60,648 nucleotides of DNA from the NCBI GenBank assembly GCA_045530715.1, contig JAZSCR010000173.1, positions 1 to 60,648 of the forward strand, in the 5' to 3' direction. Positions 9,124 through 32,487 of the stretch are shown here, one piece after another. A program made the position numbers and the translations under genes. The DNA comes from Eubacteriales bacterium. Its GTDB lineage: Bacteria > Bacillota > Clostridia > Oscillospirales > UBA644. The notes beneath the pieces were generated by a model. It saw only the letters and a list, made by a program, of their open reading frames with translations, was not told the origin of the DNA and did not search any database. Each line of letters opens with the position of its first letter. The stretch's first letter is position 1.

Positions 9124-10152
9124 ATGATTGAAGCAAAGTCTTTGACAAAACGCTTCGGAAAGAAAACGGCGGTTGACGATATATCCTTTACCATAAACCG
9201 TGGTGAAATAGTTGGACTTCTGGGCCCTAACGGCGCGGGAAAATCCACCACTATGAGCATGATTACCGGATATTTGTCATCTACGGCGGGCACAGTTACT
9301 GTTGGAGGGTACGATATCCTTGAACAGCCCGAAAAGGCAAAGGCTCTTATCGGCTATCTCCCTGAAATTCCCCCGCTGTATACGGATATGACCGTAAAGG
9401 AATATCTTAATTTCGTTTACGATTTGAAGAAGTGCAAACTGAATAGAAAAAGACATCTTGCCGAGATCTGCGACGTAGTAAAAATTACCGACGTTTACGG
9501 CAGACTCATAAAGAACCTCTCCAAGGGCTACCGACAGAGAGTGGGACTTGCCCAGGCACTTATAGGTGACCCCCAGGTACTGATTCTTGACGAGCCTACC
9601 GTAGGCCTTGACCCCAAGGAAATAGTTGAAATACGCAATCTTATAAAGCGTCTCGGTACCCAGCGCACAGTAATCCTGTCTTCCCACATTCTGTCGGAGG
9701 TTCAGGCTGTGTGCGAGCGAGTTATCATAATGAACAGTGGCGTAATAGTAATGGATGCTCTTACAGAGGACCTTGCTATGGCGGTAGGCAAATATAACCG
9801 CTACGGTATAAGACTTGCAGCCCCCGAAAATGAAGTGGTTCCCGTACTCAGCCGTCTCCCCGGAGTTAAAAAGGTTGAATACGTTGGCTCCTTTGAAAAG
9901 GGCACTGTTGATATTATTCTCGAATCGGATAAAAAGGTGGATATTCGAAAGATACTCTTCGAAGAATGTGCAAAGAGAAATTGGTACATTCTTATGATAA
10001 CGCCTCTCGGACTTTCTCTCGAGGATATATTCATTCAGCTTACTTCAAAGCAGGATGAAATTCAGCGCCTGCAGGGTGAGGCTGATGCTTCCGCCACTGA
10101 CTCTCAGCCTTCCGTTGAGGTTATTGAAACTGAAGAAGGAGGGAATGAGTAA
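9124..10152 (+). CDS. ABC transporter ATP-binding protein (ABC-2/GldA-like) with an acidic C-terminal extension
   Basis: Walker A GPNGAGKST, signature LSKGYRQR and Walker B LILDEPT, plus a C-terminal extension of about 100 aa. Confidence 0.9.
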   Translation: MIEAKSLTKRFGKKTAVDDISFTINRGEIVGLLGPNGAGKSTTMSMITGYLSSTAGTVTVGGYDILEQPEKAKALIGYLPEIPPLYTDMTVKEYLNFVYDLKKCKLNRKRHLAEICDVVKITDVYGRLIKNLSKGYRQRVGLAQALIGDPQVLILDEPTVGLDPKEIVEIRNLIKRLGTQRTVILSSHILSEVQAVCERVIIMNSGVIVMDALTEDLAMAVGKYNRYGIRLAAPENEVVPVLSRLPGVKKVEYVGSFEKGTVDIILESDKKVDIRKILFEECAKRNWYILMITPLGLSLEDIFIQLTSKQDEIQRLQGEADASATDSQPSVEVIETEEGGNE

Positions 10153-10856
10153 TGTGGGCAGTTGCTAAAAGAGAGTATATCTCCTTTTTCAAAAATCCTA
10201 TAGGATATTTTCTTCTTGCAATTTACGGAGTGCTTTCAGCCATAGTGTTTTCTCTTTTCGTTTTATGGAAAAACACAAGCTACCTGGGTGAATATTTTGG
10301 TTTTTATCTTATTTTTGTGGATATTGCCGTTATTTCCGTTATGGCAATGAGATTTTTCTCCGAGGATAAAAAGCTTAAAACCGAGCAACTTTTGCTTACG
10401 GTTCCCACCTCGGTTCCCAAACTGGTAATGGGCAGATTCATAGGTGCTATGTCGGTTTTCTGGACAGCAAGCCTTATTAATCTCATATATATCGTAGTCG
10501 TTGATATTTTCGGTAATCTCGATTACGGCGCTTTGTTTACCAACTTTGTGGGCTCAATTCTTCTTACGGGAACTATGATGGCCATTGCAATATTTATTTC
10601 GGCCGTTACCGAAAGCCCCATAGCTTCTGCAGCAGGTACCCTTGCCACATTGTTCGGTCTTATGGTTATAGACTTTTTTGCTATGTTTATGCCAAGCTGG
10701 CTGGGCAAAATACTGATGAAGCTTACAATTTACTCTTATTACGACGATTTTACAAACGGTATACTGAACCTGGTTCCCATAGTGTACTATATCAGTATTA
10801 CGGCAGTAATGCTGTTCCTGACCGTGCGTATGATAGAAAAACGCCGTTGGAGCTGA
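10152..10856 (+). CDS. ABC-2 type permease (GldF-like)
   Basis: A 234-aa polytopic hydrophobic protein. Its start overlaps the ATPase stop (TAATG). Confidence 0.75.
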   Translation: MWAVAKREYISFFKNPIGYFLLAIYGVLSAIVFSLFVLWKNTSYLGEYFGFYLIFVDIAVISVMAMRFFSEDKKLKTEQLLLTVPTSVPKLVMGRFIGAMSVFWTASLINLIYIVVVDIFGNLDYGALFTNFVGSILLTGTMMAIAIFISAVTESPIASAAGTLATLFGLMVIDFFAMFMPSWLGKILMKLTIYSYYDDFTNGILNLVPIVYYISITAVMLFLTVRMIEKRRWS

Positions 10857-10869
10857 GGAGGTGACGGAT

Positions 10870-12435
10870 ATGCAAGAACCCGCAAAACTCACAGCTGCAA
10901 AGACTGTAGAGAATAAGCAACCAAAGAAAAATAAAATATCCGTCCGCAAGCTTAAGTACGGAACTCTTGCCACAGTTATGACGGCGGTATTCGTTGCCGT
11001 TGCCATTCTTGTAAACGTGGTAGTCGGCCTTGCGGCGGAAAAGATAGATCTTACCGTGGATTATACCGAAGAGCAGGTATATACCCTCTGTGAAGAGACT
11101 CTTGCGTTTTTGCAGGAGATGCCTTCCACCGCAGAAATAATAATATTGGGTGATGAAACCGATTTTAGGTCACAGGTTTCAAATGGAAATTCCATTTCTC
11201 CCTATCAGTTTATAGTTCAGACCTCTGACAATTACGCTCGCGCATCGGAAAAGATAACCGTGCATTACGTTGACCCCACGTATAATCCCGCCTTCTTTTC
11301 AAGTAGAGGAATCACCATAGATACCTCGTCGGGCTCATCCGTGTTTATGGTTATTTACTGTCCCGAAACGCAGCGCAACCGTCAGATATACGACAATATA
11401 TTCGACGACCTTCAGTACGTAGGTCTTGAAAGGCGAATGACAGGTGGCCTTTTGTATACCACAAAGGCGGATATACAGACAATAGCCGTGGTTACAGGAC
11501 ACGGGGAACAGCTTCCCGCCCAGTTCCAGACTCTGATGAAGGATAACGGCTTTGACGTAAAGACGATAAACCTTGCCGACCACGAATATATACCCGATAT
11601 AGTAGATATCCTTCTTATCATTAATCCCACCAGAACCTACAACACCGCCGATATTGAAAAGATAGATACCTTCTTGAGCAATGGCGAGCTTCTCGGTAAG
11701 CATCTTATGGTGTTTAGCGATCTTGATGCAGGGACAAACCCCTTGCTGTACGAGTATTTAAGGGAATGGGGCATTGAATTTGGCACCGAGGCCATATTTG
11801 ATACACAGCACAGCTATCATATATCCAATGCCTACGAGCCCTTCTTGAGGCTTACCTATGAAAAGGACGCATTGTTCTCCACTTTGCTTGAAGGTGAATA
11901 TTACCTTGACGTTCATTTGGGTAAGGCAAGAGCCGTAAACGCCTTGTTTGAAGCGGAAGACGGAATTGAAACCTATACTCTTGTAAAAACCTTTGATTCG
12001 GCTTTCAGCAGATTTATCGCAAACACCAATATCTCTGCAAGTGAATACGGCAATATTAAAAAGAAGGATACCGATACAGACGGCCCCTTCACCGTAATGC
12101 TCCTTTCCGCAAAGGCGAGATTTGAGGGTACGGACAGAATATCCTCCAACGTAATCGCATGCGGTTCCACATCCTTTATGGACGACTACTATCTTTCCAA
12201 CGTGGACGGCTCAAAACAGACCACATCCGAAAGTATGGTTGAGCTGGTTAAGTATCTGGTGTCCGCTACAGAGGATATTGATACCTCAATTCTTCCCAAG
12301 AGTTTGATTGCGGATTTTCTTAACTTTACTACCACTTACGAGGTAGTTCTGGTATTCCTCGGATTGACCTTCGGAGTTCCCGCTATTTTTGCCGTAATAG
12401 GTATAATCGTATACAGAAGGCGGAAATTCTTATGA
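10870..12435 (+). CDS. GldG-like ABC-transport auxiliary protein, a large extracytoplasmic domain between N- and C-terminal TM helices
   Basis: About 520 aa, with TM helices at both ends (TLATVMTAVFVAVAILV and VVLVFLGLTFGVPAIFAVIGIIV). Architecture and context match the GldG/ABC_transp_aux family. I prefer the ATG at 10870 (GAGGAG 9 nt upstream) over the GTG at 10861. Confidence 0.65.
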   Translation: MQEPAKLTAAKTVENKQPKKNKISVRKLKYGTLATVMTAVFVAVAILVNVVVGLAAEKIDLTVDYTEEQVYTLCEETLAFLQEMPSTAEIIILGDETDFRSQVSNGNSISPYQFIVQTSDNYARASEKITVHYVDPTYNPAFFSSRGITIDTSSGSSVFMVIYCPETQRNRQIYDNIFDDLQYVGLERRMTGGLLYTTKADIQTIAVVTGHGEQLPAQFQTLMKDNGFDVKTINLADHEYIPDIVDILLIINPTRTYNTADIEKIDTFLSNGELLGKHLMVFSDLDAGTNPLLYEYLREWGIEFGTEAIFDTQHSYHISNAYEPFLRLTYEKDALFSTLLEGEYYLDVHLGKARAVNALFEAEDGIETYTLVKTFDSAFSRFIANTNISASEYGNIKKKDTDTDGPFTVMLLSAKARFEGTDRISSNVIACGSTSFMDDYYLSNVDGSKQTTSESMVELVKYLVSATEDIDTSILPKSLIADFLNFTTTYEVVLVFLGLTFGVPAIFAVIGIIVYRRRKFL

Positions 12436-13919
12436 CGAAATCAAAAATTATCGGAATGGTGGTAGGCCTTCTTGTGGTGATCGGCCTTGTGGGAGCAATG
12501 TGGTATATAAGCTCCCTTGAGGACCTTCCCCAAGAACCCGACCCCGATACTCAAATAGATAACACTCACAATGATGAGAAAAACGTTATCTTCTCCTGTG
12601 ATGTTGCTGATTTGGATTCTTTAAGTATAAAGAATGAGCACGCCGAATATTCCGTTAAACGTAAGGGTGACGGAACGGTTTATATAGTAGGGAAGGAGAA
12701 CGCTCCTTTGTTTCCCTATTCTTCTGCGGCGCTGTTTGAAAGTGTTAAGAAGATAACCTGCACCCTAAATATTGAAAACGGGACGGAGAATCTTGCCGCA
12801 TACGGCCTTGATGATCCTTCGGCTACCGTTACTGTCAACCTTAAGGACGGCAGAACGACCCTTTTCCATATAGGTAACGCCGAACCTACTGCAACCGGCT
12901 ATTATATTTGTATGGACGGAAGTAAGGACGTGTATCTGGTCAACACCTTATACGCGGAAAGATTTCTTAACGCTCCTGCAAATCTTTACGATAAAGGTAT
13001 AGCGGAATATTTCGCAGATGGGGAATTTGAATCCCTAAGCATTGATTATCACGAAGGTGACGACATCTTCATTCGAACTACAAATGCAGAAGAAAATACC
13101 CTCATTCAGTTTATAACCGGATATGCAATCGAAGCCCCCTTCTATTTTTCTGCGGATTCCGATACAATGCAGACTGTAATCGACTCTCTGCGTTCATTGG
13201 AGGCCGTAAGAGTGGTTTCAGATACCGTAAATGAGGATACACTTTCCTCCTACGGATTTGATTCTGCTGTGAAGGTTGCTCTTAAAGCTAACGTGAATAC
13301 CACGTCCCCCACGCTTGAATCGGGACTTGAAAATCCTTTCTATAAGGCTACAATGGACGGCAGTCCTTACCCCATAACCTTGACTTATCTTGTGGGTGGC
13401 AGTTCGGAGCAAGAGATATACGTTATGTATAACGATGCCCAGGTTATTTACGCTGTATATAAATCTTCTTTTGAATTTGTTCAGTTCCCCCTTTATCAGT
13501 ACTGTCAGAAGCTGGTAAGTATAGAATATATTACCAACCTTGAAAGCCTGAAGGTGGAATTTGACGGTAAAGAATACCTTTTCACCGTTATCGACCCCGA
13601 TGCGGGAGAGGATATGATTGTTACCTATGGTGAAGAGTATCTTGACCAGGATCTTTTCCGAAGCTTCTATAAGAGTATAATCAGCGTTACCCATAACGGT
13701 ATCGAGCCTCGGCCAAACACCGAGCCCGCCATGAGGATAACCTACGGGCTGATTAAGGGAGAGGACATTATCCTTGAGTTCCTGCCCTGCGAGGACAGCG
13801 ACAGAAAGGTGTTCATATCCGTTAACGGAGAAGGACAGTTCGTCTGCTACAGAACTAAGGTCGACAAGATAAAGAACGACCTTCAAAAGCTGTTAAACGG
13901 CGAAGAAATTATTGGCTAA
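12432..13919 (+). CDS. DUF4340-like membrane-anchored protein of unknown function
   Basis: A 495-aa ORF with a single N-terminal TM helix. Its start overlaps the upstream stop (ATGA). The family call comes from its usual pairing with GldG-like genes, not from a search. Confidence 0.55.
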   Translation: MTKSKIIGMVVGLLVVIGLVGAMWYISSLEDLPQEPDPDTQIDNTHNDEKNVIFSCDVADLDSLSIKNEHAEYSVKRKGDGTVYIVGKENAPLFPYSSAALFESVKKITCTLNIENGTENLAAYGLDDPSATVTVNLKDGRTTLFHIGNAEPTATGYYICMDGSKDVYLVNTLYAERFLNAPANLYDKGIAEYFADGEFESLSIDYHEGDDIFIRTTNAEENTLIQFITGYAIEAPFYFSADSDTMQTVIDSLRSLEAVRVVSDTVNEDTLSSYGFDSAVKVALKANVNTTSPTLESGLENPFYKATMDGSPYPITLTYLVGGSSEQEIYVMYNDAQVIYAVYKSSFEFVQFPLYQYCQKLVSIEYITNLESLKVEFDGKEYLFTVIDPDAGEDMIVTYGEEYLDQDLFRSFYKSIISVTHNGIEPRPNTEPAMRITYGLIKGEDIILEFLPCEDSDRKVFISVNGEGQFVCYRTKVDKIKNDLQKLLNGEEIIG

Positions 13920-24641: not shown

Positions 24642-26738
24642 TCAGCTTTGCTTTTCCGCAGCTCTGAATGTTGCGGAATCGGAAAGGGAGGTTTTTCTTT
24701 GGGGATTTGCGGTTACGGAAAGTATCTCATCCTCCGATACCGCCTTCGCTCTTATAAAAGCATGGTCTATTATCTGAAGCTCGGTCATGGCGTCAAGACA
24801 GAGTCGAAGTTTTAAATAACTGAAAGCATTTCCCATCTTTCTGGTAAGGGCTCGGCATATTCCAAGGGGGCTGATTTTTACACTATCGGTCCCTTTTGCG
24901 GAAAGGGTGTTTTTTATGTACTTGAATACTACTCCAACGTCGTCGCGGGTTATTCTTTCGCTGTCGGGGATAGTGTCCTGCTGAGCCTTGAAGGTCAGAT
25001 ACTGCACCTTGCTCTTTTCTGCTTGCTTGTGTTCTTCACTTCCAAAGGCCAGGTCGGACAGCTCCATTGCCCTTATTACGGAGGAGAGCGAACGGTTTCC
25101 TCTGTAAATGTTTTCGTCCACGGTGCAGATGATATTTACTCTGTCACCTACCGAGCAACTCATTTCCTCTGCGGAAGAAGAGAAATTGAGAGCTGAAAAG
25201 CTTCTTCCTTCCTCATCAGAAAATGTGATTCTTGCAAATCTTCCCTGAGAAATGGGGAATATGTCGGTAATTTTTATGTTCTGTAATCCGAATGCGGGAG
25301 TGGGATTTGCAGCGCCGAAGGGTTCAAGCCTTTTTATGGAGTCATAGGTTTCAAGGGTCATGTCTTCAACCGAAAGCAGACATTCCGCTTCTTCGGTGGC
25401 AAAAAGGGCTTCTTCGGAAATGTTTTTTTCGGCATATTCGGTGGCGGCCTTTCTGAATGCCTCGAAATCCTCTTCCTTTACCGTAAGGCCTGCAGCCATA
25501 GCGTGTCCGCCAAATTTGCTCAGTCCCGTGGCGGATGCTGAAAGGAGGTCGTATATGTTGATGCCCTGCCTGCTTCTTCCCGAGCCCTTGGCTGTGGTTC
25601 CGTCGGTGCAGAAAAGTATACAGGGACGGCTGTAGGTTTCGGAGAGCCTTGAAGCAACTATTCCGATAACCCCGTTGTGCCAATGGGGGGATTTTTCTAT
25701 AATTATCTTGTTTATTTTCTTTGCGGCAAGTCTGTTTTCAACGTCCTTGAGTATCTCCGTTTCCATTTTCTGCCTTTGGGCGTTTTCTTCACAGAGGATT
25801 GATGCCATTTCTTCGGCTTCCGTGGGGTCGGTGGCCGTCAGGAGCTTTACCGCAACATAGGGGTCGCCTATTCTTCCCGCGGCATTAAGGCGGGGAGCTA
25901 TTCTGTAGGCTACCGTAGATGCATCAAGGGGCTTTTCGTCACTTCCCGAGGCCTTCATAAGAGCCTTTATCCCTACGGGGATATTCTTCTCCATAGACTT
26001 AAGACCGAGGGATACGATAACCCTGTTTTCACCCTTAAGGGGCATAATGTCTGCTATGGTTCCGATAGCCGTAAATCCCACGTATTTAAGGGCGTTTTCG
26101 GTGCCCGAAAGGGCTTCGATTAGCTTAAATGTAACGCCTACACCTGCAAGGTTTTCAAAGGGGTATTTTGAATCCGCCCTTTTGGGGTTGACCACGGGAC
26201 AGGAGGGGATTTCATCCTTGCCATTTTCGTCCCTTTTGCACTCGTGATGGTCGGTGACCACACATTTAAGTCCCAGAGATGTGGCGTAAGCGATTTCTTC
26301 TGCCGCGGAAATGCCGGTATCGACGGTTATAATAAGCGAGGTGCCGTTTGCCGCTATTTTATCAATGGCCGAATTGTTAATACCGTAGCCCTCTTCAATT
26401 CTGTTGGGGATGTAGTAATCAACCCTTGCACCCACCGATTTAAGGTATCCGTAGAGTATGGTTATGGAGGTGATTCCGTCCACGTCGTAGTCGCCGTATA
26501 CGGTTATCTTTTCGTCATTCTCTATGGCGGTGCGGATGATTTCTGTGGCCTCTCTTATATCAGGCATAAGATATGGGGAATGGAGGCCGCTTTTGTCCGA
26601 ATTCATAAAGGCAAATGCCTCTTCGGGGGTGGTGCATCCTCTGTTGCAAAGAAGGCGTGCTGTTATATTATCAAAGCCTGCAGAAACAAGGGCTTCCACT
26701 ACGGCTGTATTCTGTTGTCTGATTATCTGTTTTATCAT
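24642..26738 (-). CDS. recJ: Single-stranded-DNA-specific exonuclease RecJ
   Basis: DHH motifs (GDYDVDGITS, TVDTG, VTDHH) and a DHHA1 domain. 698 aa. Confidence 0.9.
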   Translation of the reverse strand: MIKQIIRQQNTAVVEALVSAGFDNITARLLCNRGCTTPEEAFAFMNSDKSGLHSPYLMPDIREATEIIRTAIENDEKITVYGDYDVDGITSITILYGYLKSVGARVDYYIPNRIEEGYGINNSAIDKIAANGTSLIITVDTGISAAEEIAYATSLGLKCVVTDHHECKRDENGKDEIPSCPVVNPKRADSKYPFENLAGVGVTFKLIEALSGTENALKYVGFTAIGTIADIMPLKGENRVIVSLGLKSMEKNIPVGIKALMKASGSDEKPLDASTVAYRIAPRLNAAGRIGDPYVAVKLLTATDPTEAEEMASILCEENAQRQKMETEILKDVENRLAAKKINKIIIEKSPHWHNGVIGIVASRLSETYSRPCILFCTDGTTAKGSGRSRQGINIYDLLSASATGLSKFGGHAMAAGLTVKEEDFEAFRKAATEYAEKNISEEALFATEEAECLLSVEDMTLETYDSIKRLEPFGAANPTPAFGLQNIKITDIFPISQGRFARITFSDEEGRSFSALNFSSSAEEMSCSVGDRVNIICTVDENIYRGNRSLSSVIRAMELSDLAFGSEEHKQAEKSKVQYLTFKAQQDTIPDSERITRDDVGVVFKYIKNTLSAKGTDSVKISPLGICRALTRKMGNAFSYLKLRLCLDAMTELQIIDHAFIRAKAVSEDEILSVTANPQRKTSLSDSATFRAAEKQS

Positions 26739-26923
26739 GGTGTTTTTATCTTTTCCGTTATGTAAGGGTACAAATCCCTATTATAATTATATTATAAATT
26801 ATATTATATCACATTCCGGCGCTTTTTTAAAGGTGTATATCTTGACAAAAAGGTGAAATGTGCAAAAGATGACGAGTAAAAAACCTGGGTGCCGGGTATT
26901 TAAAAATTCTTTTTCTAAATCTA

Positions 26924-26953
26924 TTGACAGTGTTATTTTCTCTATGATATAAT
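26924..26953 (+). promoter_or_regulatory. SigA promoter with an extended -10 for the large lipoprotein gene
   Basis: TTGACA (26924-26929), an 18-nt spacer, then TGaTATAAT (26945-26953). Confidence 0.6.
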
Positions 26954-27063
26954 ATTTATGACAAGAGTATGAACTCTGCTGATTCTTTGCATCATTTTGG
27001 CATTTTAATGTGTCTTAATATATAGAGAGATAAATATATATGTTCGAAAGGAGCGCACAAACC

Positions 27064-30000
27064 ATGAAACACATTACAAAAATCTTTATTTTTATCTTGG
27101 CGGTACTGCTTTTTGGGGGAATATTGGTTTCATGCACATATGATGAAGAATGGCTATATAATTCATACGTCCATTGGCAGGTCGGAGAAGACGGAGAGAC
27201 CTTAAACCAGGGGAATCATTCCGGTGGCGAAGCTACATATGAAAGAGGTCCTGTCTGTGATGTCTGCTGCATAGAATATGGAGAGCATTTGCACGAAGGA
27301 CAGGGCGCCTGGGAGATATCCTCTGCAGCACATTGGAAAAATTGTTCTTGCGGCAAAAAAACGGATATGGAGCTGCATATTTTTATTGACGGTAGCACTG
27401 ATGATAAGATCATCTGTGAAATATGTGGATTTGAATCTTCAAAACACGTTCATTATACGGAAAATGATTGGAATACAAATGCGAGTGAACACTGGAAAAC
27501 TTGCTCTTGCGGAGAGGTATTTTCTAAAGGAAAGCATTCAGGTGGGGAAGGACAGGATGGCACTGCTGTTTGCACTGTTTGCAATAGAAAGTATACTCCC
27601 GTCGGTGGCTCGAGCTCTCACGTTCATACATCCGTCAGTGGCTGGTATAGTAATTATGAACAGCATTGGCTATGGTGCACGTGCGGTGAACAATATGGAT
27701 TTGAAGCCCACTACGGAGGAATTGCTACTGTTGACGATTATGCCGTATGCGTAGCTTGCGGTCAAGAATACGGGGAGCTTTTATCCCTTGATCTTCCCGG
27801 TCTTATCCAAGGATATCATTATGGAGGGAATGCTTTCGCGTATATAATTTCTTGCGATTCTGATAAAATAGATGGGTCTGTTAGTGGCATAATTAACCGC
27901 AAGATTGATGATATGGTCGATGACTATTATCTCCCGCTTTATTGGGTGTATTATCTTAGGGAGCTCGGTTATTCGCATACAGAGACTGTTGTTGAGAATC
28001 AGAAGCAGAGAATACATTTTATATTGGACGGAGATGTTTTTTACGCTCAGGCGTATTACGACGTTCAGTATACCGCTTATGATAAAGACGGTAACGTTAT
28101 TGAGTTTTCTGAGGAACACGGAAAAAATCCCGTGGGGGATATGCTGAAAGAAAAATTTTCCGATATATATGATGTTAGAACCGGAAGAGTGGTGACGGAG
28201 AACTCGTTGATAATGGACGGCTCAACCTCCACGATCCCTCTGGAGGTTGCCTTCAGAATGGGTTATTACGGAGAAACGGGAGGAGTTGCTTCACAAAAAG
28301 TTATCCACAATACTACTTACGGTTCTTTCTACAATCTTCGTGATGGAATATGTGACCTTATATTCACAACACCCCTATCCGCACAGCAAAGAGACGAGGC
28401 AAAAAATAGAGGTCTTGACCTTGCGGAAGTGCCCATTTGTATGGAAGCTTTTGTATTTGTAGTTAATGCAAATAATCCTGTTGAAGAGCTTACTGTACAG
28501 CAGCTCAGGGATATTTATTCTGGAAAGATAACCAATTGGAAAGAGGTTGGCGGCCCCGACGCTTCTATTGAGGCGTTTCAAAGAAATGTAACGTCGGGAA
28601 GTCAGAATTATATGAAGTTCTTTATGGGGGATACTCCACTTATGGATCCCATTACTTATATTACTCCCAGCAGTATGGAAGGGTTGGTAGAGGTTTTAGC
28701 CTCATACGACAATGCTGTAAATTCCATAGGCTATAGCGTATATTCCTACGCGGCGAATATGTACGTTGACGCGGGTAAGATAAAGTTTATAAAGGTTAAC
28801 GGGATAGCTCCTACCGAGGAGACTATGGGCGACCTTTCATACCCCTTGCTTAACTATAACTACGCCGTATATGATAAGTATAACGGTAATCCCGAAATAG
28901 AAAAAATGGTCAATTGGATACTTTCTGACGAAGGTCAGAAGGCTGTTGCAGAAGGAGGCTACGTGCCCCTTCAGGGCGGCAATCTTCCAAACCGAGTTGA
29001 TACGCAGCTCGATCTTTACGATGCCGTAGGCACCGGAAGATATTCTTCTGATGTTTCTGTGCACGGACTTTCAGCGATAACATTCTATTCTCATTCCATT
29101 CACGCTGAACCTCCCGAGAAATATCTTACTGAAAGCAGCTATTTAAAAGACCAATACGGAGAAGAATATCCTATAGTATACGGTATAAAATATACTGTTG
29201 ACGGATTTGTTGATGAAACGGTTGAAGCAAAGATAAATGACTTCATCGCTACCGCTTGCGCAGAGGTTGAAGAAAAATTTGAAGAGGTCTGCGAGCAGTT
29301 TCTGGTAGCTCATGTAAATAACGATCGCTATGTTAGGTTGGCAGATGAATGGACTATGGAAGGATTTAGCACACCAATAGTTCGGCCCTCAAAAGTAGAG
29401 ATCAGGGGACAAAATGGATATCTATCCGTAATCGTTCATTCTGGATTCAGTACCACGGTGAATGATGATGACATTTATTATCGCTATTATACAAAGACTG
29501 CTACCTTTGATCTTCGTACAGGAAATAGAATAGAAAGGCTCTCGGATCTCTTCCCCGAAGGTGTTGAATTTGTGGATAAGCTTAATGATTCTATCCTGTA
29601 CAGCATCGATGAGATATCCGGTGATATTTTCGGATCTGCATACAATATAGACGGAGAATTCTTAGCTCTTACTGAGGCAGACGTTGAAAACTTTACCTGC
29701 AACAGTGTTATTTTTCCCTTTGGAAGTTCCGCTGCAAGTTGGGGGCTTGAAGTCGAATTCTCCGTAGAATCGTTGGTTTCTGAATACTGTGATATGCATC
29801 AGTTTTTTACCGAGGAGTTTAAAGGACGGTTTTGGGGCTCAACAACTGTTACCCAGTCTCTCGGAACGGAAAAAAGTGTTTCTATCGGAGGTAGCAGCCT
29901 TGCGGGAGTATACTATCCGTCAGACGCAGACTCTGCTTTGATAAAAGCTGCAAAATATCTTGCCGAATACGTAGAGCAGTTCGTGAGCGAAGATATCGCC

Positions 30001-30468
30001 CTTAAAATGTACCACGATGCGGGACATACAAACGTGGTAAGGGTGGAATACGCTTTCCCAAAATTCCTTCCCAAAAAGGTTGGGGATTTATTCTACTGTT
30101 TCTCTCAGAGAGAAGATGTGTGGGAAAACATATATTATGCTTACGATGCTGACGGGAACAGAGTGTTCGATGAAAAACTGATGGTAGGATATTCAGAGCT
30201 TCAAGATATCGACAAGACATTCTATTTTCATCAGAGTACAGGCGAGCCTGTAATAGTAAAGCTTAAAGATGGCTGGGAAGAGGATGCCATCGTATATAGT
30301 CAGACTGACGGGCAGGAATGGACGTATCAGGAGCTTGCAGACATAATAACGGTCATTCCCGAAGACCTGAACTTTTTCACGGGAAGGTATTTCACACGCG
30401 TGAAAATCAATGATAAATGGCATTCTGTCTACGTTAATATTCCTTTAAGTTATATCGTTCTTGAATAA
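27064..30468 (+). CDS. Large (~1134 aa) multidomain lipoprotein of unknown function: Cys/His repeats, a PstS-like (PBP_like_2) domain and RsiV/PdaC-like modules
   Basis: GAAAGGAG RBS 8 nt before the ATG at 27064. The signal peptide MKHITKIFIFILAVLLFGGILVSC ends in an LVSC lipobox. The central region matches the PstS family (DGSTSTIPL, NPVEELTVQQLRDIYSGKITNWKEVGG, QRNVTSGS). The gene is bounded by its own promoter and a 24-bp hairpin. Confidence 0.8.
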   Translation: MKHITKIFIFILAVLLFGGILVSCTYDEEWLYNSYVHWQVGEDGETLNQGNHSGGEATYERGPVCDVCCIEYGEHLHEGQGAWEISSAAHWKNCSCGKKTDMELHIFIDGSTDDKIICEICGFESSKHVHYTENDWNTNASEHWKTCSCGEVFSKGKHSGGEGQDGTAVCTVCNRKYTPVGGSSSHVHTSVSGWYSNYEQHWLWCTCGEQYGFEAHYGGIATVDDYAVCVACGQEYGELLSLDLPGLIQGYHYGGNAFAYIISCDSDKIDGSVSGIINRKIDDMVDDYYLPLYWVYYLRELGYSHTETVVENQKQRIHFILDGDVFYAQAYYDVQYTAYDKDGNVIEFSEEHGKNPVGDMLKEKFSDIYDVRTGRVVTENSLIMDGSTSTIPLEVAFRMGYYGETGGVASQKVIHNTTYGSFYNLRDGICDLIFTTPLSAQQRDEAKNRGLDLAEVPICMEAFVFVVNANNPVEELTVQQLRDIYSGKITNWKEVGGPDASIEAFQRNVTSGSQNYMKFFMGDTPLMDPITYITPSSMEGLVEVLASYDNAVNSIGYSVYSYAANMYVDAGKIKFIKVNGIAPTEETMGDLSYPLLNYNYAVYDKYNGNPEIEKMVNWILSDEGQKAVAEGGYVPLQGGNLPNRVDTQLDLYDAVGTGRYSSDVSVHGLSAITFYSHSIHAEPPEKYLTESSYLKDQYGEEYPIVYGIKYTVDGFVDETVEAKINDFIATACAEVEEKFEEVCEQFLVAHVNNDRYVRLADEWTMEGFSTPIVRPSKVEIRGQNGYLSVIVHSGFSTTVNDDDIYYRYYTKTATFDLRTGNRIERLSDLFPEGVEFVDKLNDSILYSIDEISGDIFGSAYNIDGEFLALTEADVENFTCNSVIFPFGSSAASWGLEVEFSVESLVSEYCDMHQFFTEEFKGRFWGSTTVTQSLGTEKSVSIGGSSLAGVYYPSDADSALIKAAKYLAEYVEQFVSEDIALKMYHDAGHTNVVRVEYAFPKFLPKKVGDLFYCFSQREDVWENIYYAYDADGNRVFDEKLMVGYSELQDIDKTFYFHQSTGEPVIVKLKDGWEEDAIVYSQTDGQEWTYQELADIITVIPEDLNFFTGRYFTRVKINDKWHSVYVNIPLSYIVLE
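27172..27783 (+). repeat. Four tandem intragenic repeats of about 53-58 codons encoding the HW-x2-CxCG ... H ... CxxC ... HxH module
   Basis: HW occurs at ORF residues 45, 98, 151 and 209. The motifs HWKNCSCGK, HWKTCSCGE and HWLWCTCGE are each followed by CxxC. At the DNA level, 27331-27353 and 27490-27512 are identical at 20 of 23 positions. Confidence 0.8.
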
Positions 30469-30472
30469 TAGT

Positions 30473-30524
30473 CAGAATAAGAGAGGAACGGAGCCCGTCA
30501 GGGCTCCGTTCCTCTCTTATTCTG
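30473..30524. terminator. Bidirectional terminator, a 24-bp perfect inverted repeat between the convergent lipoprotein and pgm genes
   Basis: cagaataagagaggaacggagccc, loop gtca, then gggctccgttcctctcttattctg. Confidence 0.8.
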
Positions 30525-32201
30525 TTAATTTCTCACGTAGCTTCCAAACTCCTCAACGAAGTCGTTGAGCTTTCTTTGAGCCTGGACGTCATTTTCGCCC
30601 TTGGTCATTACGTATACCTTTATTTTGGGCTCCGTGCCCGAGGGTCTTATGACGAGGACTGTGCCGTCTTCAAGCTTATAATAAAGCATATTTGACTTGG
30701 GAAGTCCCCAAAGACCTTGGCTGAAGTCAAGCACTTCGTTTACCTTGTATCCGCATACTTTTTCGGGATATTCTTGGCGGAGAGAAGCTATTTTTTCGGC
30801 CATCAGCTTGAGGGGAGAGGCTCCTTTTATAAGGATATCCACCGTTTTTTCTCTGAAGTAACCGTGCTTTTCAAAAAGCTGCATCAGTACGTCGTAGAGG
30901 GTGAGCCCCTTTTCTTTGTAGAAGGCGGCGGCCTCTGCTACTATAAGGGCGGCCACAACGGCGTCCTTATCCCTCGCGTGTTCGCCTATAAGGGAGCCGT
31001 AGCTCTCCTCGTAGCCGAATATATATTTATATTCGCCGCTTGCGTTAAACTGCTCTATTTTTTCGCCTATAAACTTAAAGCCCGTAAGGACGTTAAATAC
31101 GGCAATGCCTTCTTTTTTGCATATCTCTGCGCCAAGCTCGGAGGTTACCACCGTCTTTACCATGGCTCCGTTTTTGGGGAGAGTGCCTTTTGCCTTGTTA
31201 GAGCTTATGATATATTCAAGAAGTATTGCGCCCGTCTGATTTCCTGTGAGGACCTCAAATTCGCCCTCCTTGTTTCTTACCAGTACGCCTATTCTGTCGG
31301 CATCAGGGTCGGTACCGATTATAAGCTCCGCGTCCTTTTCCTTTGCCAAGTGCATAGCGCCGGCAAACCCCTCAATATGCTCGGGGTTAGGGGATATGAC
31401 TGTGGGGAAGTTACCGTTAGGGTCCATTTGAGAGGGAACGGGAATAACGTTTGTAAAACCTGCTCTCTTGAGGACTTCGGGAACCAATCTCAATCCCGTG
31501 CCGTGGAAGGGGGTATATACTATGGGCAGGTCAGACTGTCTTTTGCAGACCTCGGGAGTGATTTGTGCTTTCAGTATGGCGGAAAGATATTTTTCGTCAA
31601 ACTCTTCTCCCAGAACGGTAACGTGGCTTTCGTATTCTTCCTTTGTGGGGAGTTTGGCAAAGAAAACGTCGTTTTGGTTCATTACAGAGGCAATCTTATC
31701 CGCCTGCTGTAGTGATATCTGTGCTCCGTCGCTCCAATACACCTTATAGCCGTTATACTGCCTGGGGTTATGAGATGCGGTGATATTTATACCTGCGGTA
31801 CAGCCAAGCTCTCTTACTGCAAAGGACAGCTCGGGGGTGGGACGGAGGGTCTCAAAAAGATAGGTCTTTATTCCGTTTGCCGCAAATACCTCCGCCGTTC
31901 TTTTTGCAAATTCGGGTGACATTATGCGGCTGTCGTAAGCGATAACGGCGCCTTTTTTTGCGCCGTCGGGTTCTCTGAGTATGAGCTCTGCCACAGCCTG
32001 AGATGCATGGGCAACGGTGTAAAGATTCATTCTGTTTGTACCGGGGCCTAATATTCCTCTGAGGCCTGCGGTTCCGAAATTAAGATAAGAGGAGAACCGT
32101 TCTTCTATATCGTAATCTGAAAAAAGACTGAGCTCATTCTTTGTTTCGTTATCAATAACGGGAGAATTAAGCCAACTTGTATATGTCCGCTGAGCATTCA
32201 T
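30525..32201 (-). CDS. pgm: Phospho-sugar mutase (phosphoglucomutase/phosphomannomutase family)
   Basis: Active-site motif TASHNP (GINITASHNPRQYNGYKV) and metal loop DPDADR. I prefer the ATG at 32201 (MNAQRTY...) because the ORF-track TTG start at 32243 overlaps the upstream gene. Confidence 0.88.
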   Translation of the reverse strand: MNAQRTYTSWLNSPVIDNETKNELSLFSDYDIEERFSSYLNFGTAGLRGILGPGTNRMNLYTVAHASQAVAELILREPDGAKKGAVIAYDSRIMSPEFAKRTAEVFAANGIKTYLFETLRPTPELSFAVRELGCTAGINITASHNPRQYNGYKVYWSDGAQISLQQADKIASVMNQNDVFFAKLPTKEEYESHVTVLGEEFDEKYLSAILKAQITPEVCKRQSDLPIVYTPFHGTGLRLVPEVLKRAGFTNVIPVPSQMDPNGNFPTVISPNPEHIEGFAGAMHLAKEKDAELIIGTDPDADRIGVLVRNKEGEFEVLTGNQTGAILLEYIISSNKAKGTLPKNGAMVKTVVTSELGAEICKKEGIAVFNVLTGFKFIGEKIEQFNASGEYKYIFGYEESYGSLIGEHARDKDAVVAALIVAEAAAFYKEKGLTLYDVLMQLFEKHGYFREKTVDILIKGASPLKLMAEKIASLRQEYPEKVCGYKVNEVLDFSQGLWGLPKSNMLYYKLEDGTVLVIRPSGTEPKIKVYVMTKGENDVQAQRKLNDFVEEFGSYVRN

Positions 32202-32232
32202 CGTATGCAGATACCTTTCGCTTTTATTGGCT

Positions 32233-32487
32233 CTACTGCGCAAGGGCTTCCTCCAGCGCGGTAGCGAGCTGATCGGGGCAGGATGTGGGTCTGGGACCGC
32301 AGCAGGTACCCTTGAGTCTGGCTATGACGTCTTCTGCCTTCATTCCGACTACCAGCTGGGCAATACCTTTGGTGTTGCCGTTACAACCGCCTACAAACTC
32401 TGCCTTTTCAATTATATTATTGTCATTTAGGACAAGTTTTATAGCTCTGGAACATGTCCCTTTAGTTTTATATTCAATAGTCTTCAT
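32233..32487 (-). CDS. TSCPD-domain small protein (TIGR03905-like)
   Basis: An 84-aa ORF with GGCNGNTKG and TSCPDQL motifs. Confidence 0.7.
   Translation of the reverse strand: MKTIEYKTKGTCSRAIKLVLNDNNIIEKAEFVGGCNGNTKGIAQLVVGMKAEDVIARLKGTCCGPRPTSCPDQLATALEEALAQ

Follow-up and report, generated by a model that had tools for sequence, protein, structure and literature searches.

A predicted phosphate-binding lipoprotein encoded in a hypervariable cassette between recJ and pgm of a Clostridia genome

Phosphate-binding proteins are usually regarded as parts of the Pst transporter. Nearly all solved proteins of the PBP_like_2 family bind inorganic phosphate (PMC10443332), and in PBP-1 of C. perfringens the phosphate is wholly buried by nine ligands, which are S11, T12, S13, S41, S59, R125, S129, G130 and T131 (PMC5381212). 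The DUF4163/DUF3298 fold is represented by RsiV, for which 3CYG is the best structural match, but not all proteins of this fold bind lysozyme, as exemplified by MPT64, which does not (PMC5014341). Here we describe a gene encoding a predicted lipoprotein, in which a PstS-like domain is joined to modules with an RsiV-like predicted fold. The gene is located between recJ and pgm on contig JAZSCR010000173.1 of an uncultured Eubacteriales/Oscillospiraceae bacterium, and all coordinates are positions in the analyzed stretch of 60,648 nt (the window). Residues (aa) are those of its protein product, P0001; the four full-length orthologues (67-48% identity) are P0002-P0005, and related loci are numbered from L001 onward. 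From the N to the C terminus the protein consists of a signal peptide, four Cys/His repeats, module A, the PstS-like domain, module B and module C (Table 1). The coding region forms most of a hypervariable cassette, in which the PstS-like domain retains a predicted phosphate site.

A PstS/PBP_like_2-type domain had been proposed in an earlier note made from the sequence of this stretch, and this assignment proved to be genuine. The sole Pfam match in the protein was PBP_like_2 (PF12849) at aa 423-623, with E = 5.5e-26 and 92.4 bits versus a cutoff of 27 bits. The phosphate-bound PstS structures 4q8r and 4gd5 were the nearest in a PDB sequence search (E = 3e-23), and in the Foldseek comparison 4gd5 was the best match (E = 5.5e-17, TM 0.73), followed by 4q8r (TM 0.76), at 28% identity, with all of the top 36 matches being phosphate-binding proteins. 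When the PBP-1 ligands were mapped by HMMER alignment, they corresponded to predicted ligands S387, T388, S389, T418, S439, R507, S511, G512 and S513, all identical or Ser/Thr-swapped relative to PBP-1, and each with a conservation of at least 90% among 58 family members. The GSGxG loop, described in the earlier note as divergent, has indeed an altered sequence, TTYGS, but this does not amount to a degraded site; the loop would still supply a hydroxyl at T418, so that the phosphate site looks complete. The protein shares with PstS lipoproteins (TIGR02136/PBP_like_2; PBP-1, 4Q8R, 4GD5) the fold, the nine ligand positions and the N-terminal lipid anchor. It differs from them in that the binding domain makes up only ~23% of its length, with extensions of 350 aa on the N-terminal side and 495 aa on the C-terminal side, in that the gene lies outside any pstSCAB operon and has a promoter of constitutive type, and in that, besides the altered loop, the domain scores below the NCBIfam cutoffs (TIGR02136 at aa 377-636, 128.6 bits versus 206.6 bits; TIGR00975, 27.5 bits versus 205).

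The gene occupies the same position between recJ and pgm in three relatives of the same genus (L001-L003), two of which are separate GTDB species representatives, and the orthologue P0005 belongs to a more distant genome, where its genomic context is different. The proteins encoded by the flanks in the three relatives were 93-100% identical to those of the window, except for one MBL-fold protein with 87% identity, as compared to 54-67% for the lipoprotein. Synonymous divergence (dS) and the ratio of nonsynonymous to synonymous divergence (dN/dS) were obtained as Nei-Gojobori estimates. In the recJ, pgm and EPSP-family flanks dS was 0.13-0.44 and dN/dS 0.008-0.11, versus a saturated dS of 1.6-2.7 and a dN/dS of 0.12-0.17 for the lipoprotein gene as a whole. 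The PstS domain is under strong purifying selection, with a dS of 0.95-1.66 and a dN/dS of 0.05-0.07 when it was taken alone. The score of this domain below the NCBIfam PstS cutoff, the altered GSGxG loop and the high overall amino-acid divergence could suggest a decaying or non-functional PstS paralogue, which diverged under relaxed constraint, but this explanation is scarcely credible and is already largely refuted by the low dN/dS of both the domain and the whole gene. It is also at odds with the intact open reading frames (ORFs) of 1107-1193 aa in all five genomes that encode P0001-P0005, with the family-wide conservation of the ligand residues and of the lipobox cysteine, and with AlphaFold models that are confident outside the repeats.

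The borders of the divergent segment were sharp. In comparisons with L001-L003, sliding-window nucleotide identity dropped from ~0.9 to 0.2-0.6 at ~27100, roughly twelve codons after the start of the signal peptide, and at ~30600, a short distance within the 3' end of pgm, it was back at ~0.9 (about 90-95%). The first ~19 codons, the promoter and the leader were conserved like the flanks. At the other border identity was 0.63-0.67 over the terminator and over the final ~75 nt of pgm (30500-30600), as compared to ~0.93 deeper in pgm. The fact that the 3' end of pgm diverges together with the cassette places the recombination boundary inside pgm.

The closest allele changed along the protein. 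Over aa 1-80 the window protein was most similar to P0004, and over its last ~55 aa to P0003. For the greater part of aa 161-680, and for a part of aa 881-1000, the closest was P0002, with up to 97% identity. The tail of module C (aa 1075-1134) exists in two allelic types, with P0002 and P0004 representing the second type at 74% mutual identity. Module A of the window protein was 59% identical to that of P0005, which is encoded elsewhere in genome context, versus 35% to that of P0003 from the same position. Furthermore, L003 is the most distant genome as judged by pgm, yet its allele is the closest. These incongruences among nearest relatives, in an allele diversity that rests on five sequences, point to old mosaic alleles which were swapped by recombination within a resident locus, rather than to a new insertion or a simple increase in rate. 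Metagenome scans with a conserved promoter 25-mer and with the orthologue alignment found nothing, and a scan of a genome collection with the same 25-mer returned only two metagenome-assembled genomes (MAGs), both already known. No donor paralogue was found within the window. Hypermutation of the type caused by diversity-generating retroelements was considered and rejected, because no reverse transcriptase or template repeat is located nearby and the divergence includes indels along the entire gene.

The earlier note had inferred possible horizontal acquisition from A/T-ending codons in the 5' third of the gene. The bias is real, although mild: the G+C content at third codon positions (GC3) was 0.396 for the whole gene versus 0.480 +/- 0.035 for 42 window genes, which is the lowest value of 43. 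However, it extends beyond the 5' third, because GC3 was 0.378 for aa 1-378, 0.435 for the PstS domain and 0.341 for aa 640-860. In all four other orthologue loci the GC3 of the gene was also below that of its neighbors. This composition, together with a synonymous divergence far above that of the flanks and with the location of the P0005 orthologue in a different context of a more distant genome, could be explained by the recent horizontal acquisition of an orphan gene and its insertion among housekeeping genes. We consider such an insertion quite improbable, and the claim of horizontal acquisition was not upheld, since the recJ-pgm position is occupied in all three same-genus relatives, and the promoter, the leader and the signal start show the same conservation as the flanks. 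Additionally, neither genes of mobile elements or for tRNAs nor flanking repeats were seen near the gene. Hence, the data are better suited by allele replacement in a resident locus.

The lipoprotein signal with the lipobox LVSC, which the earlier note had recognized, is borne out by the translation. The sequence L-V-S-C24 fits the pattern [LVI][ASTVI][GAS]C, the cysteine C24 is kept in at least 90% of the 58 family members, and a helix was predicted by AlphaFold at aa 2-21 of the signal peptide. The four Cys/His repeats reported in the same note are also present, with a length of ~52 aa each and the consensus HxH..W..HW..CxCG..H.GG.AT..C..CG.EYG.HxH. Their HW anchors are at aa 37, 90, 143 and 201. 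CxC and CxxC knuckles are both found in units 2-4, and the CxC has been lost from the first unit. The number of copies varies from 3 to 5 among the orthologues. AlphaFold confidence over the repeats was low (predicted local distance difference test, pLDDT, of 30-55). The repeat is not represented by any model of Pfam or NCBIfam, and all Pfam zinc-ribbon matches were below threshold.

In a search of 1.84 billion representative proteins with a profile of the N-terminal region, 4425 clusters were matched at E <= 1e-3, including 1592 at E <= 1e-10. Among the matches listed all covered the repeat part only, except for two which ran slightly past it; there were often multiple matches per protein, in proteins of up to 5246 aa. 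In 149 representative proteins (P0122-P0270) there were 1325 repeat units, in which the Cys/His positions were 82-94% conserved, and the Cys knuckle positions 82-91%. The proteins contain up to 24 units each, and their partner domains are extracellular ones, including BspA-type LRR_5, dockerin, FecR and transglutaminase. The motif makes the repeats look like zinc ribbons with a putative metal site, and the repeat is a candidate new domain family. The window repeats share with the ~50-aa repeat of large Clostridia-type surface proteins the consensus HW.xCxCG...H.GG.AT(C)...C..CG..YG. In contrast to those proteins, only four units are present, directly after the lipid anchor, and they are fused to a solute-binding domain; in these window units Tyr, Asp or Val takes the place of the frequent fifth cysteine of the Clostridia-type repeat (ATC).

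The regions on both sides of the PstS-like domain appear to be related to each other. Using hhalign, module A (aa 277-377) was found to be homologous to aa 962-1063 with a probability of 90% and E = 1e-6, and as judged from this alignment the 133-aa segment preceding the PstS domain is a duplicate of the module C type. In the full-length AlphaFold model (pLDDT 78) the same order of elements, bb-aa-bbbb, was predicted at aa 252-370, 701-823 and 937-1056. The three such regions, together with the homology of A and C, indicate that the 280 aa which the earlier note could not place are largely one more copy of the module. A separate model of aa 640-1134, based on 52 sequences, had a pLDDT of 86.8 and a predicted TM-score (pTM) of 0.84. 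The only significant match of this model among PDB structures in Foldseek was 3CYG (E = 1.1e-4, probability 1.00, TM 0.40, root-mean-square deviation 11 A), and RsiV itself was absent from the top 50 matches. The 3CYG match probably lies in module B, a placement that we infer because Foldseek gives no aligned query residues. Against viral structures the same model gave no significant Foldseek match. The stretch of ~aa 710-920 is conserved across the wider family.

At the level of sequence profiles the relationship to RsiV was not apparent. Neither PF11738 (DUF3298) nor PF13739 (DUF4163/PdaC) was matched at E <= 10 by the whole protein or by its tiles, and among the 58 relatives one matched PF13739 weakly (E = 0.004) and none matched PF11738. 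A comparison of module B with the PDB, using the single sequence and the family profile, returned nothing meaningful and no solved relative. In view of the missing profile match and of the fold match to 3CYG, the modeled C-terminal region is described as RsiV-like in fold, with family membership not demonstrated; hence, the DUF4163/DUF3298 module proposed in the earlier note holds for the fold and fails for the Pfam profiles. The likeness to the group of RsiV, PdaC, MPT64 and 3CYG consists in extracytoplasmic beta/alpha modules, in the 3CYG match, and in a strand-turn motif of the type FDLxTGxxLxLxDLF, which we take to be typical of DUF3298. There are also clear differences, which are the lack of a Pfam or sequence-profile match to solved members, the TM of just 0.40, and the presence of three modules versus one in the RsiV group, where lysozyme binding by RsiV is not general for the fold. 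Unlike RsiV, the window lipoprotein has no anti-sigma or other cytoplasmic domain and no transmembrane helix, and no gene for an extracytoplasmic function (ECF) sigma factor is adjacent to its gene, the neighbors of which are recJ and pgm.

The term orphan, which the earlier note had applied to this gene, turned out to be inappropriate. The PstS-like domain is present in at least 243 database clusters, most of which also have the C-terminal module. The Cys/His repeat likewise has a very wide distribution, and only the full combination is rare. Among the matches listed most were proteins of 690-890 aa sharing aa 377-~920, which corresponds to the PstS-like domain and module B, sometimes with an extension to module C, and a few were longer (970-1535 aa) with two PstS-like domains. 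Two such domains in one polypeptide were seen in P0006, P0008 and P0009, with P0006 (1535 aa) consisting of two complete units of a PstS-like domain and a C-terminal module. The named family members are called 'substrate-binding domain-containing protein' and come from Oscillospiraceae/Ruminococcaceae MAGs. These lipoproteins with a PstS-like domain and a C-terminal module are a large unnamed and uncharacterized Oscillospiraceae family, in which the full architecture of ~1100 aa alone is rare. The window protein resembles the family members of ~700-830 aa over aa 377-~920 at 35-44% identity (E = 1e-86 to 1e-111), and shares with them the lipobox cysteine, the ligand residues and the lack of pstCAB linkage. 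They differ from it in having neither Cys/His repeats nor module A, the full architecture being limited to P0001-P0005. In the search of the 1.84 billion representatives module A was found in a single 50%-identity cluster, which contained the orthologues only. When just the 495 aa at the C terminus were used to search for homologues, one new protein was added, the 333-aa fragment P0121.

No pstCAB genes were found in ten related loci, comprising four orthologue contexts and six contexts from the wider family, although one of the latter six adjoins an unrelated transporter. The six wider-family contexts have changing housekeeping neighbors and sometimes tandem paralogues. Tandem PstS-like lipoprotein paralogues were seen in L005 (1-9121) and L013 (5680-10244), and in L005 three unannotated genes of 431-463 aa, with no Pfam match, are located between the paralogues.

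Table 1. Coordinates of the lipoprotein gene, its parts and its surroundings in the window
Feature	Position	Strand	Description and basis
Hypervariable allelic cassette	27100..30600		mature coding region, terminator and last ~75 nt of pgm; sliding-window identity, BLASTN breakpoints
Lipoprotein ORF	27064-30468	+	1134 aa; translation
Sigma-70-type promoter	26924-26953	+	TTGACA-18 nt-TATAAT, TG extended -10
Lipoprotein signal peptide, aa 1-24	27064..27135	+	MKHITK, hydrophobic core, lipobox LVS-C24
Four tandem ~52-aa Cys/His repeats, aa 25-245	27136..27798	+	zinc-ribbon-like in motif
Module A, aa 246-378	27799..28197	+	bb-aa-bbbb, ends YDVRTGRVV; pLDDT 78-94
PstS-like (PBP_like_2) domain, aa 379-640	28198..28983	+	Pfam, NCBIfam, PDB sequence and fold matches
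Linker and module B, aa 641-935	28984..29868	+	contains NGYLSV and TATFDLRTGNRIERLSDLF; RsiV/3CYG-like (DUF4163/DUF3298-like) region
Module C, aa 936-1134	29869..30465	+	bb-aa-bbbb, then FHQSTGEPV and variable tail
Stem-loop terminator	~30475-30522	+	G+C-rich long stem, 4-nt loop; common to the convergent lipoprotein gene and pgm
recJ	24642-26738	-	Pfam; upstream flank of the lipoprotein gene
pgm	30525-32243	-	Pfam; downstream flank, convergent with the lipoprotein gene

The start codon of the gene is preceded at 8 nt by the ribosome-binding sequence AAGGAG. A longer ORF could begin with the ATG at 27040, but this codon is not kept in L001. The earlier description of a monocistronic gene with its own promoter and terminator is supported: the promoter matches the consensus at 12 of 12 positions, and the hairpin is perfect save for its 4-nt loop. 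In L001-L003 the promoter is near-identical to that of the window, with the -35 element, the TG and the -10 element all kept and a few substitutions in the spacer. The leader of ~104 nt between the promoter and the gene is likewise kept as well as the flanks in these loci. A riboswitch in this leader was rejected, because an Rfam search gave 0 matches and the folding was no better than that of shuffled controls (z = +0.36). As the genes recJ and the lipoprotein gene are divergent, their two promoters, which carry the identical extended -10 TGATATAAT (region 26779-26955), give rise to an 11-nt perfect inverted repeat at 26801-26811 and 26945-26955. The entire intergenic region is kept in L001-L003. 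An invertible promoter and phase-variation repeats were rejected, since the repeats are just AT-rich chance repeats and the 11-nt one corresponds to the two divergent extended -10 boxes.

The placement of the gene as the sole plus-strand gene between recJ and pgm also agrees with the earlier note, as the other nearby genes with Pfam support are all on the minus strand. These are recJ, relA/spoT, dtd and an MBL-fold gene upstream, and pgm, TSCPD, SPOUT, an MBL-fold gene, an EPSP-synthase-family gene and an M23 peptidase gene downstream. The remaining genes of the window are housekeeping ones, including SMC, FtsY, LeuRS, AspRS, ThrRS, PBP2 and Rnf. The absence of an adjacent transporter partner, which had been noted before, extends to the whole 60-kb window, in which neither pstCAB nor a paralogue of the lipoprotein gene was found. 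The longest pgm ORF has 572 aa (TTG start at 32243), which is 14 codons more than the 558-aa pgm called in relatives. At 10861-13919, after two smaller ORFs at 9124-10856, adjacent genes for ABC_transp_aux (PF09822) and DUF4340 (PF14238) were found, which may form an accessory ABC-type system unrelated to the lipoprotein gene.

The C-terminal match to 3CYG, the nearest structural neighbor of the lysozyme receptor RsiV, and the presence of this module type in three copies raise the possibility that the protein has an envelope or host-interaction role with no transport partner. The pocket could then recognize a surface ligand or a phosphorylated polymer, for example phosphate of the teichoic-acid type or phospho-glycans derived from the host or the diet, and/or the three RsiV-like modules could bind lysozyme or wall hydrolases as a trap or a sensor. 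The lack of transporter linkage in the ten contexts, the constitutive-looking promoter, the relatives with tandem paralogues or with two PstS domains per protein, and the hypervariability, which is typical of exposed interaction surfaces, are all consistent with such a role. On the other hand, the complete burial of phosphate by nine ligands in PBP-1 (PMC5381212) leaves scant room for a polymer, and lysozyme binding is not a constant property of the DUF4163/DUF3298 fold, given the case of MPT64 (PMC5014341). The modules also fail the Pfam profiles, RsiV is not among the Foldseek matches, and the locus provides neither an anti-sigma domain nor a nearby ECF sigma gene. Overall, we regard an envelope role of this kind as rather unlikely.

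The explanation that we favor, and to which we give about an even chance, is that the protein is an accessory phosphate receptor, which is lipid-anchored, displayed on the surface and unlinked to a transporter. The lipobox would anchor the protein on the outside of the membrane, where the PstS-like core would close around its ligand, either inorganic phosphate or a terminal phosphoryl group. The Cys/His repeats could serve as a metal-stabilized stalk of variable length, depending on their 3-5 copies, and the three beta/alpha modules could be exposed interaction surfaces. These modules would be exchanged by homologous recombination inside the gene as well as in its conserved flanks, under a diversifying or balancing pressure that may come from phages or from the host. 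The receptor would be expressed constitutively and could act in trans, together with a Pst permease or sensor from another locus, and not as a component of a dedicated operon.

Several observations weigh against an accessory phosphate receptor. The score of the binding domain is below the cutoff of TIGR02136, and the ligand positions are inferred from one pairwise HMMER alignment together with conservation. The perfect -35 and extended -10 elements are unlike a Pho-regulated promoter, which argues against a scavenger induced by starvation, and the long N- and C-terminal appendages, as well as the several paralogues per genome in relatives, would be unusual for the partner of a transporter. The metal binding and the stalk role of the repeats are guesses from their motif, in a region where the model has low confidence, and selection on the variable modules is not quantifiable because dS is saturated. 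A more far-reaching proposal, which we put forward tentatively and with considerable doubt, is that of a polymorphic, recombining surface-receptor locus with alleles shared across species, in which a strictly conserved phosphate core is carried on interchangeable zinc-ribbon-like and RsiV-like modules, and pressure from phages or host immunity maintains the diversity. If this is true, a PstS-like lipoprotein would be an antigenically variable receptor or a phage target in uncultured gut or rumen Clostridia.

The building blocks of this protein are all known or widespread, but its family is unstudied, the complete architecture is rare and the hypervariable cassette was unexpected. The Cys/His repeat, found in thousands of protein clusters, has so far escaped the models of Pfam and NCBIfam. 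The combination of a conserved core and old mosaic alleles between near-identical housekeeping flanks is a clean natural case of surface-protein diversification in uncultured commensals, and the recJ-pgm lipoprotein locus may serve as a strain marker. A large unnamed family from an abundant gut and rumen clade, with an apparently intact phosphate pocket, no adjoining Pst transporter and a fusion to RsiV-like modules, suggests an unstudied form of phosphate recognition at the Gram-positive surface. If the more far-reaching proposal of a polymorphic surface-receptor locus is true, the wider Oscillospiraceae family would represent an unrecognized class of non-transport phosphate receptors.

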